Positions 26,279 through 27,817 of a DNA stretch of 34,139 nucleotides are shown piece after piece. The position numbers and the translations under genes are program-made. Position 1 is the first letter of the stretch. Each line of letters begins with the position of its first letter. Source of the DNA: Chloroflexota bacterium (GTDB lineage: Bacteria; Chloroflexota; Anaerolineae; B4-G1; SLSP01); the NCBI GenBank assembly GCA_009908585.1, contig JAAAOZ010000333.1:1-34139 (forward strand). Direction: 5' to 3'. Below the pieces are notes generated by a model, which did no database searches, was not told where the DNA came from, and saw only the letters and a list, made by a program, of their open reading frames with translations.

Positions 26279-27817
26279 TCATTGCTCATAATAGTCTTCC
26301 TTTTGGGAAAGTGTTGGTTCCCCCATAATTCTGCCCTCGAAACGTGCCTTTGCCTGATCCCACTCTTTTTTCGACTCAGCTCGGAGGCGCTGTGCCTTGT
26401 CTTTACGATGGTTAACCTCAGCGGCTATAGCTTTTTGAACTTCAATATCTGGCAAAGGAATTTCAACGGTCCGTAAAGTTGTGGTATTGATCCCCGCTTG
26501 ATTTACGAAGTTAGTAGCTAGGATGCCAAAGTAACCAGTCGCCCGAATGCTGTTCAGTAGAGCTGCTATGAACCAAGGATTTGCTAATTTCTCTTTGAGA
26601 TGTAAGCGGGTGATATGGTTTGAGCAGCAGCATTCTCGCTCTACATCAAAAACAGTACTTTTCCCTACCCATTCCGTTGAGTTCGTGTTATTCAATAGAA
26701 CTTCACCATAGGTAAGCCTTTGAGAAGAAGAGACCATATCACGAGGAACATATTTTGAATCTTCAAAAGTCAGCTCTCCATATGGTGTTATATTAAGAGG
26801 ACGAATGTGAGGGACACCTTTCTCTGGACCTGCTACTTGCTTATCTCGTCCGGCTGCAAATCCAGCTGATATTTTTTCTGCACATATTTCTTCAATAGTA
26901 CGGACCTTATACTTTCCGTTACTAATGCGTTGACGTAACTTATGAAAACGAGGGGAATGATAAGGAACGTCGCAGCGTTGCTGGATCTCTTCGAATTTCG
27001 TACCAAAAGTCAAAGAGGTAGTTTCTTGCTTTATTTTCAAATCAAGTGTTTTTAACACGTAATTATCAATGCTGGCAAGTAATGCTTCAGCAGATTCTAT
27101 CTTTCTTCGGCGAGATTCTCGAGCGGTCTGCAACTCTTCGACCCATTCGCTTTGTATCTCAGGTGATGGTATTGGAACGGGTAGTTCTTCTAAGAAGTAG
27201 TCAGGTAGACGTTGTTGCCCCGCAGAACCCGTAAAGGCTGCTGGAGCTACTTTTAAGAAGCTATCCAGGGTTAGCACTCCCCAAAGATACTCAACTGTAA
27301 CTTGATCACTTCGAGGGCGAAGCACGTGAAATTCTGTAGACCCGTATCCCACACCTTTACGCAAGTCCCGTGCAATTGCTATTTTCCCATTCTCCATACA
27401 GGGAGTAATTTTTGCAAAAAGTAGGTCTCCCTCAGCAAATTGCGTGTACCCTGTTGATACAGAATTGTATACTTCATCTTGAATATTGATTTCGCCGTTC
27501 TTTTCACCCACTGCCTCCATTGGAACGAAGGAAACAAGGTCATTATTTTCTAAAGCAGAGGTATCTATTTTAGGATTGACTTTAACCCATTCCGAAAGAG
27601 ATCCTTGATAGTATGGACTTGCTTCCCATCTCTCCAGTAGTTTTAAGAGCTTAGGAGTTAAATGACTACAGGATAAATTTCTACGAACCGAAGAGCCCCG
27701 ACTAACAGCAAAGCAAGTTAATTTACTTTCTGCATCGGGGTCTAGACAAAAAAAGGGTCTGGGTCCTCCTGGAAAGCCCGAAACTGCTCTATCACTTCTG
27801 GGAATTGATTCTCGCAT
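26279..27817 (-). CDS. Restriction-modification specificity subunit (HsdS/BcgIB-like, two TRDs); start uncertain
   Basis: Two TRD-like halves separated by helical spacers. The only in-frame ATG/GTG/TTG upstream of TRD1 is at 27817, 76 nt inside the methylase gene. Confidence 0.75.
   Translation of the reverse strand: MRESIPRSDRAVSGFPGGPRPFFCLDPDAESKLTCFAVSRGSSVRRNLSCSHLTPKLLKLLERWEASPYYQGSLSEWVKVNPKIDTSALENNDLVSFVPMEAVGEKNGEINIQDEVYNSVSTGYTQFAEGDLLFAKITPCMENGKIAIARDLRKGVGYGSTEFHVLRPRSDQVTVEYLWGVLTLDSFLKVAPAAFTGSAGQQRLPDYFLEELPVPIPSPEIQSEWVEELQTARESRRRKIESAEALLASIDNYVLKTLDLKIKQETTSLTFGTKFEEIQQRCDVPYHSPRFHKLRQRISNGKYKVRTIEEICAEKISAGFAAGRDKQVAGPEKGVPHIRPLNITPYGELTFEDSKYVPRDMVSSSQRLTYGEVLLNNTNSTEWVGKSTVFDVERECCCSNHITRLHLKEKLANPWFIAALLNSIRATGYFGILATNFVNQAGINTTTLRTVEIPLPDIEVQKAIAAEVNHRKDKAQRLRAESKKEWDQAKARFEGRIMGEPTLSQKEDYYEQ

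Follow-up and report, generated by a model that had tools for sequence, protein, structure and literature searches.

A probable programmed -1 ribosomal frameshift site between the nuclease-methyltransferase gene and the specificity module of a restriction-modification system

Organization of the module

A restriction-modification (R-M) module was analyzed in a 34,139-nucleotide (nt) stretch of DNA from a Chloroflexota bacterium (assembly GCA_009908585.1, contig JAAAOZ010000333.1), and this whole stretch is called the window throughout. The module consists of a gene for a fused nuclease and methyltransferase (RM) and, directly behind it, the reading frame of a specificity module (S). The junction between the two is probably a site at which a fraction of the ribosomes translating RM would be shifted into the -1 frame. 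The features of the locus are collected in Table 1.

Pfam placed HSDR_N_2 at residues 43-113 of RM and N6_Mtase at residues 297-595. The N-terminus is an HSDR_N-type PD-(D/E)xK nuclease in which D82, E99 and K101 are invariant, and the methyltransferase part is of the gamma-class N6-adenine type, with the motifs DPACGSGGF and NPPFG, the second of which is invariant. RM.BsaXI was the best match to RM among solved structures in the PDB (8w0p, E = 2.9e-37). The comparison that had been drawn in the first-pass annotation of this DNA, with BcgI A+B on one side and the single-chain type IIB enzymes on the other, was apt. PADLOC labels the parts of the module MTase_I and Specificity_I, and no hsdR gene scored above its cut-off in the genome of the window, which is 70% complete. 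An identity with MAD2 and MAD5 of the methylation-associated defence system (MADS) was rejected, since the NCBIfam MADS2 model gave 293 bits against a cut-off of 720 and MADS5 gave 58 against 400.

The 3' end of RM reads GAC CCT TTT TTT GTC TAG. The S frame lies at -1 relative to RM; after a stop at 27820-27818 it remains open as far as 26279. It encodes a linker, a conserved CFAVxRG motif and two target-recognition domains (TRDs), and Pfam found two Methylase_S stretches in it. When ATG, GTG and TTG were counted as starts, the only start codon in this frame before the Met of FVPMEAV (27520, inside TRD1) was the ATG at 27817. A -1 slip on the T-run, or the addition of one T, would join the two frames into an RM-S protein of 1091 amino acids (aa) and 124.3 kDa, with the junction ...EDPDPFF followed by CLDPDAESKLTCFAVSRG... 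This arrangement, with a T7 run at 27754-27748 in its stop context, an S frame open at -1 and no start of its own other than the ATG within RM, had been described in the first-pass annotation together with a predicted fusion of about 1090 aa by slip or by T8. All of its coordinates were confirmed on the sequence.

Table 1. Features of the RM/S junction and its module in the window
Feature	Position	Strand	Description
RM gene	27742..29553	minus	Open reading frame (ORF) 29553..27742, 603 aa, 69.2 kDa; zero-frame product ending ...DPDPFFV
-1-frame continuation (specificity module)	26279..27754	minus	491 codons; begins FFCLDPDAESKLTCFAVSRG...
Slippery heptamer T_TTT_TTT	27748..27754	minus	X_XXY_YYZ phase, codons CCT TTT TTT; A7 on the plus strand
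Spacer GTC TAG	27742..27747	minus	6 nt: one sense codon and the zero-frame stop
Internal AGGAGG resembling a Shine-Dalgarno (SD) sequence	27765..27770	minus	10 nt 5' of the heptamer, dnaX-like spacing
Stimulatory hairpin (predicted)	27692..27743	minus	Outer stem CCCCG/CGGGG, 27740-27736 with 27700-27696, then inner stem
Match to covariance model R1	27693..27754	minus	41.8 bits, E = 1.2e-7; sole match in the whole genome assembly of the window
Sole upstream ATG in the S frame	27815..27817	minus	76 nt inside RM; no SD sequence
Intrinsic-terminator-like hairpin	26090..26115	minus	11 bp, 8 of them GC, with a T-tail; lies past the S stop, at the close of the two-ORF module

Conservation of the slippery heptamer

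A protein search with the hypothetical fusion returned thousands of relatives, and 80 genome loci and 80 metagenome loci were retrieved around such genes. The commonest relative is an RM of 600-620 aa that ends in ...PFF[VA], and this zero-frame C-terminus is conserved as a protein end. The heptamer T_TTT_TTY was present in the phase of RM in all 68 split genome loci (window included) and in 73 of the 79 metagenome loci that could be evaluated. The same site was found on three viral contigs, which brings the loci with an in-phase heptamer to 144 (67 genome, 73 metagenome, 3 viral and the window). Judged by record titles, the carriers span at least 13 phyla, with relatives from Paracoccus, Novosphingobium and Bifidobacterium among the genome loci, and their RM proteins are only 51-75% identical. 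The T_TTT_TTT that had been proposed as a -1 heptamer in the window stands in the correct X_XXY_YYZ phase and is more than a chance occurrence, as the in-phase heptamer recurs in 143 related loci together with the spacer and the open -1 frame.

In terms of its form, the heptamer is TTTTTTC in 126 and TTTTTTT in 15 of the 141 genome and metagenome loci (window included). The 6-nt spacer, one sense codon and then the stop, is kept in 140 of these 141 loci. The residue that precedes Phe-Phe may be P, S, R, L, A or N, yet the third base of its codon is always T, and the first Phe codon is always TTT in genes whose GC content at third codon positions (GC3) ranges from 0.19 to 0.91. The joint probability of T followed by TTT, computed from the codon usage of each gene, was about 1e-79, a value that is not corrected for shared ancestry. 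In an information profile anchored on the heptamer, the upstream wobble positions are free and positions 0 to +18 are near-invariant. Taken together, the comparison indicates that conservation acts on the nucleotides of the junction and not on the encoded residues only.

No near-identical copy was found: 40 relatives of the genome gave no match, the closest metagenome relative was 72% identical, and nothing above 43% identity was found in a plasmid collection. In one locus (L050:4824-4890) the zero-frame stop has moved to 15 nt past the heptamer, so that RM ends in PFFICPP.

A covarying hairpin downstream of the heptamer

The 64 nt that lie 3' of the heptamer in the window fold with a predicted energy of -23.9 kcal/mol (z = -3.67), and none of 200 dinucleotide shuffles was as stable. 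No other 60-nt window within +-1.5 kb is as stable. The same holds for the junction in 51% of the loci, and the median z is -3.3. Across the loci the outer stem has the form (G/C)CCCCG...CGGGG(C/G), and in the inner stem a variable 5' arm pairs with the arm that encodes CFAV. Plain MAFFT alignment followed by RNAalifold recovered the outer stem alone; the inner helix lies in different registers in different clades and was resolved by a covariance model.

This model, R1, covers the heptamer, the spacer and the hairpin as a 62-nt motif and was built from 16 loci. Its matches were confined to junctions in about 980 kb searched. In the model alignments 84.4% of the cells were paired, compared with 42-54% when the partners were slid against each other, and the covariation score of 0.193 (compared with 0.02-0.09) was reached by none of 500 shuffles. 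The metagenome set, which lay outside the building of the model, gave 86.6% paired and 36-53% after sliding, and here too none of 500 shuffles reached the score. The closing pair occurs as GC, CG, AU and UA; its two bases are about 50 nt apart, one in a Ser/Thr codon and the other at the wobble position of a Gly codon.

An extra, near-perfect hairpin of 10-11 bp is inserted inside the junction hairpin in three Chloroflexota loci (L024:4920-5008, L033:4932-5026 and L039:3940-4028). It adds about 10 residues to the linker (e.g. TSEVLKTSEVS), and the linker peptide evidently tolerates this insertion.

The S frame is open and lacks a start in the relatives

Past the heptamer, nearly all loci keep the -1 frame open over about 460-490 codons. 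In 63 of the 68 genome loci it reaches 380 codons or more, or it runs off the contig. A few of the loci appear to be single-TRD forms. Between the upstream stop of the -1 frame and CFAVxRG, no ATG, GTG or TTG was found in 31 of the 68 loci, and no start with an SD core of at least 4 nt in 67 of them. The comparison of orthologues for a conserved S start with a ribosome-binding site, which the first-pass annotation had named as a result that would refute its finding, thus came out the opposite way.

In 13 of the 68 loci, mostly from Clostridia, an ATG, GTG or TTG stands at +9, overlapping the RM stop or lying just 5' of it, and the heptamer and the hairpin are kept (L010, L016, L018, L020, L025, L027, L028, L030, L032, L035, L044, L045 and L050).

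Two loci may be damaged. In L113 (2025-2106) the -1 frame closes after 21 codons, and its S module is probably broken. In L072 (3001-5010), from the cyanobacterium Pegethrix, a premature stop lies about 104 codons into the RM match and the junction signal is intact, with a model match of 36.9 bits; either recent decay into a pseudogene or an error in the assembly may account for this.

Relatives with start-stop overlaps or in-frame fusions

The family contains natural controls in which the two parts are expressed by other means. In L150 (3780-3870) and L121 (2030-2120) the S start overlaps the RM stop as ATGA, and in L040 (3690-3780) as GTGA. None of the three has the heptamer or an R1 match, and in L150 a GGAGG lies 10 nt upstream. 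Judged by this arrangement, they are the family's own examples of classical translational coupling.

Old in-frame fusions (L019, L037, L047, L078, L084 and L119, three of which were inspected by sequence) likewise have neither the heptamer nor an R1 match. A different kind of fusion was found in two Poribacteria loci, L012 (4790-4860) and L015 (4785-4855). Here RM and S are joined in frame into a protein of about 1070 aa by the junction GAT TTT TTT CGG GTA AGC CCC G, which is the frameshift site with one added base and the former stop out of frame, and which encodes PDFFRVSPDREN. These loci look like a recent conversion of the frameshift form into the fused form, and they show that the one-extra-T route that had been proposed for the window does occur in nature. 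The transframe protein predicted for the window aligns to both of them without a gap across the junction, at PDFFRVSPDREN, and the RM-S fusion would for this reason be a natural, working architecture. As read from these junctions, the family shifts between three states (frameshift, ATGA-coupled and in-frame fusion) by single-base changes.

A programmed frameshift as the likely explanation

These data suggest programmed -1 ribosomal frameshifting at the RM/S junction, with a probability that we put at roughly 0.8. Most likely, the S module is produced solely by frameshifting, as an extension of RM. Programmed frameshifting had been one of three options offered in the first-pass annotation, and it is the one favoured by the comparative data. 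The signal and its conservation are seen directly in the sequences; the slip itself, its efficiency and its stoichiometric purpose are what we infer. In E. coli, motifs of the H_HH.U_UU.Y type are among the most shift-prone (PMC4066793).

The proposed mechanism is as follows. Ribosomes on the RM message would arrive at U_UUU_UUU with their P and A sites both occupied by tRNA-Phe. The hairpin about 6 nt downstream would hold them there, and in the window the AGGAGG located 10 nt upstream, a possible extra stimulator, may add to the pause. A fraction of the ribosomes would then slip back by one base, with both tRNAs re-pairing on UUU. Ribosomes that do not slip would add Val and stop, which gives the 603-aa RM, while those that slip would read 489 more codons past the two Phe codons, which gives the 1091-aa RM-S with both TRDs. 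RM and RM-S would be expected to assemble as (RM)2S, as in BsaXI, because S-type subunits bind two methylase-type subunits; and they would form a working unit because BsaXI is (RM)2S and the EcoKI M-S fusion needs free M. The rate of slipping would in this way set the ratio of RM to RM-S from a single message, and S would never be made alone.

Several observations weigh against this interpretation or limit it. Termination-reinitiation is possible as a second route in the 13 relatives with a start codon at +9, which is a situation not seen in the window. The SD-like element is not universal, as a core of at least 4 nt at 9-11 nt upstream of the heptamer was found in 38 of the 68 loci. The pair counts of the hairpin were taken from alignments that had been fitted to the model and are thus biased towards structure. 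The conserved encoded residues (S/T-P ... CFAV-x-R-G) could explain part of the conservation of the hairpin, and the recent in-frame fusions retain the outer stem.

The alternative that survives best, at a level we still consider unlikely, is transcriptional slippage, in which RNA polymerase would add one U on the T-run so that a share of the mRNAs encodes RM-S in frame and the same products result. The T7 of the window would suit such an event, one added T does yield the in-frame fusion, and such fusions occur naturally. In E. coli genes UUUUUUU is also rarer than expected in every frame, possibly for that reason (PMC4066793). Against this stand the 126 of the 141 loci in which the run is T6 followed by C only. 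A run of T6 is short for productive polymerase slippage. Moreover, the covarying hairpin 6 nt downstream would still be untranscribed with the polymerase on the run, and its placement is that typical of stimulators of ribosomal -1 frameshifting.

Separate synthesis of S is less likely still. Its translation would then begin with the ATG at 27817 or a non-canonical codon, or through termination-reinitiation, and the T-run would be nothing but coding sequence for Phe-Phe. From 27817 onwards the frame is indeed open, an overlap of start and stop couples the translation of classical hsdM-hsdS pairs (PMC3510504), and the family itself contains both the relatives with a start at +9 and the ATGA or GTGA overlaps of L150, L121 and L040. 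The ATG at 27817 was nevertheless rejected as the S start: it has no SD sequence, it would add 25 out-of-frame residues, it is a by-product of conserved Lys-Cys codons of RM (AAA TGC) and is not conserved as a start, and in most relatives a stop in the -1 frame separates the equivalent position from the junction. From the RM stop to the inside of TRD1 the window has no ATG, GTG or TTG. Coding for Phe-Phe leaves the invariant preceding T, and the TTT in GC-rich genomes, unexplained, and neither heptamer nor hairpin survives in the relatives that have their own S start in a start-stop overlap.

The least probable explanation is that the junction is artefactual or mutated: the assembly may have miscounted a homopolymer whose true form is T8 and encodes a single chain, the tract may be phase-variable, or a fusion gene may have broken recently. 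Although the window comes from a fragmented metagenome-assembled genome of 511 contigs and in-frame fused relatives exist, the same split, phase and spacer recur in 143 other loci from independent assemblies, 14 of them with T7, and the zero-frame end ...PFF[VA] with its stop is conserved. The other two options of the first-pass annotation lose their ground by the same comparison: the tract is always T6C or T7 and never longer, in the same phase and frame arrangement, which speaks against phase variation, and a sequencing error is at odds with a frame arrangement found in all relatives and a T7 common to 14 of them.

Comparison with known systems

The predicted frameshift site resembles those of E. 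coli dnaX (tau/gamma) and of the OrfA-OrfB insertion sequence (IS) elements of the IS3 family in its in-phase X_XXY_YYZ heptamer and in the stem-loop about 6 nt downstream; as in those systems, a single message of the window is inferred to yield two products whose ratio is fixed. The AGGAGG 10 nt upstream is a further likeness to dnaX, and the likeness to IS3 extends to the product, as the shifted product is a longer fusion there and a shorter protein in dnaX. The site differs from both in that its heptamer is U_UUU_UUY and not A_AAA_AAG, in that its 6-nt spacer includes the zero-frame stop as a constant element, and in that the genes are an R-M enzyme and its specificity module. Some IS elements use U_UUU_UUC (PMC4066793).

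Among R-M enzymes, the type IIB systems BsaXI and BcgI, with RM and a separate S, share with the window a PD-(D/E)xK nuclease fused to a gamma N6A methyltransferase, a specificity module with two TRDs and the lack of a translocase subunit. BsaXI assembles as (RM)2S (PMC11997821). In contrast to both, S in the window lacks a start codon and would exist only as an extension at the C-terminus of RM. The RM of the window is also shorter than that of BsaXI (603 aa vs 916 aa), and its length suggests that it is too short to hold the full C-terminal region of BsaXI with knob and paddle.

The single-chain type IIB/IIG fusions of RM and S (P0011, P0018, P0022, L012 and L015) have the same domain order as the transframe product and align with it without a gap across the junction (...PDFFRVSPDREN...). 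They differ in being made by ordinary translation as one product, whereas the window would also make free RM. The engineered EcoKI HsdM-HsdS fusion follows the same logic of a fusion plus a free subunit, as it is functional and needs extra free M (Roberts et al. 2012, PMC3510504). It was obtained through mutagenesis, and natural EcoKI uses a 1-nt overlap of start and stop and translational coupling with no recoding.

With clearly less confidence than for the junction itself, and only a little better than even odds, we propose that the relatives form a large, phylum-spanning class of motor-less R-M systems in which S would never be free. Such a class would depend on an obligatory and fairly efficient -1 frameshift, and its active form would be an RM/RM-S heterodimer, equivalent to (RM)2S in which one link is covalent. 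In that case recoding would serve as a device that sets the stoichiometry of a defence system, and evolution would have toggled between the three states by single-base changes.

No frameshifting in an R-M system was found in the literature searched, which included a 2016 recoding review, the GeneTack survey with its supplements and an E. coli heptamer survey, with subscription journals and REBASE notes outside its coverage. R-M systems are among the best-catalogued bacterial genes, and recoding as a mode of their expression is not described in that literature. If the proposed frameshift is correct, loci of this kind are mis-annotated, with S ORFs called from internal or out-of-frame starts or flagged as broken, and expressing S alone would miss the natural product. 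It would also offer a simple answer to the question of how a 2:1 ratio of subunits is set from one message, and it would add a widespread example of cellular -1 frameshifting in which frameshift, coupled and fused forms are found in one family. The 62-nt motif of heptamer, N3-stop and hairpin can be used to find such systems and re-annotate them.

Surroundings of the module

The RM-S module (26279-29553) is a low-GC island, with a GC content of 42-50% compared with 57-64% in the flanks. An SNase-LTD gene (29745-31199) lies on one side of it and a RadC-like/ArdC-like operon (23676-25550) on the other. The restriction system in this window thus adjoins genes of an anti-restriction type (RadC/ArdC-like). 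Homopolymers are also present outside the RM module, as paired G8/G8 and G7/G7 runs and a C8 run, at 25914-25933, 22128-22145 and 18428-18435 of the window.

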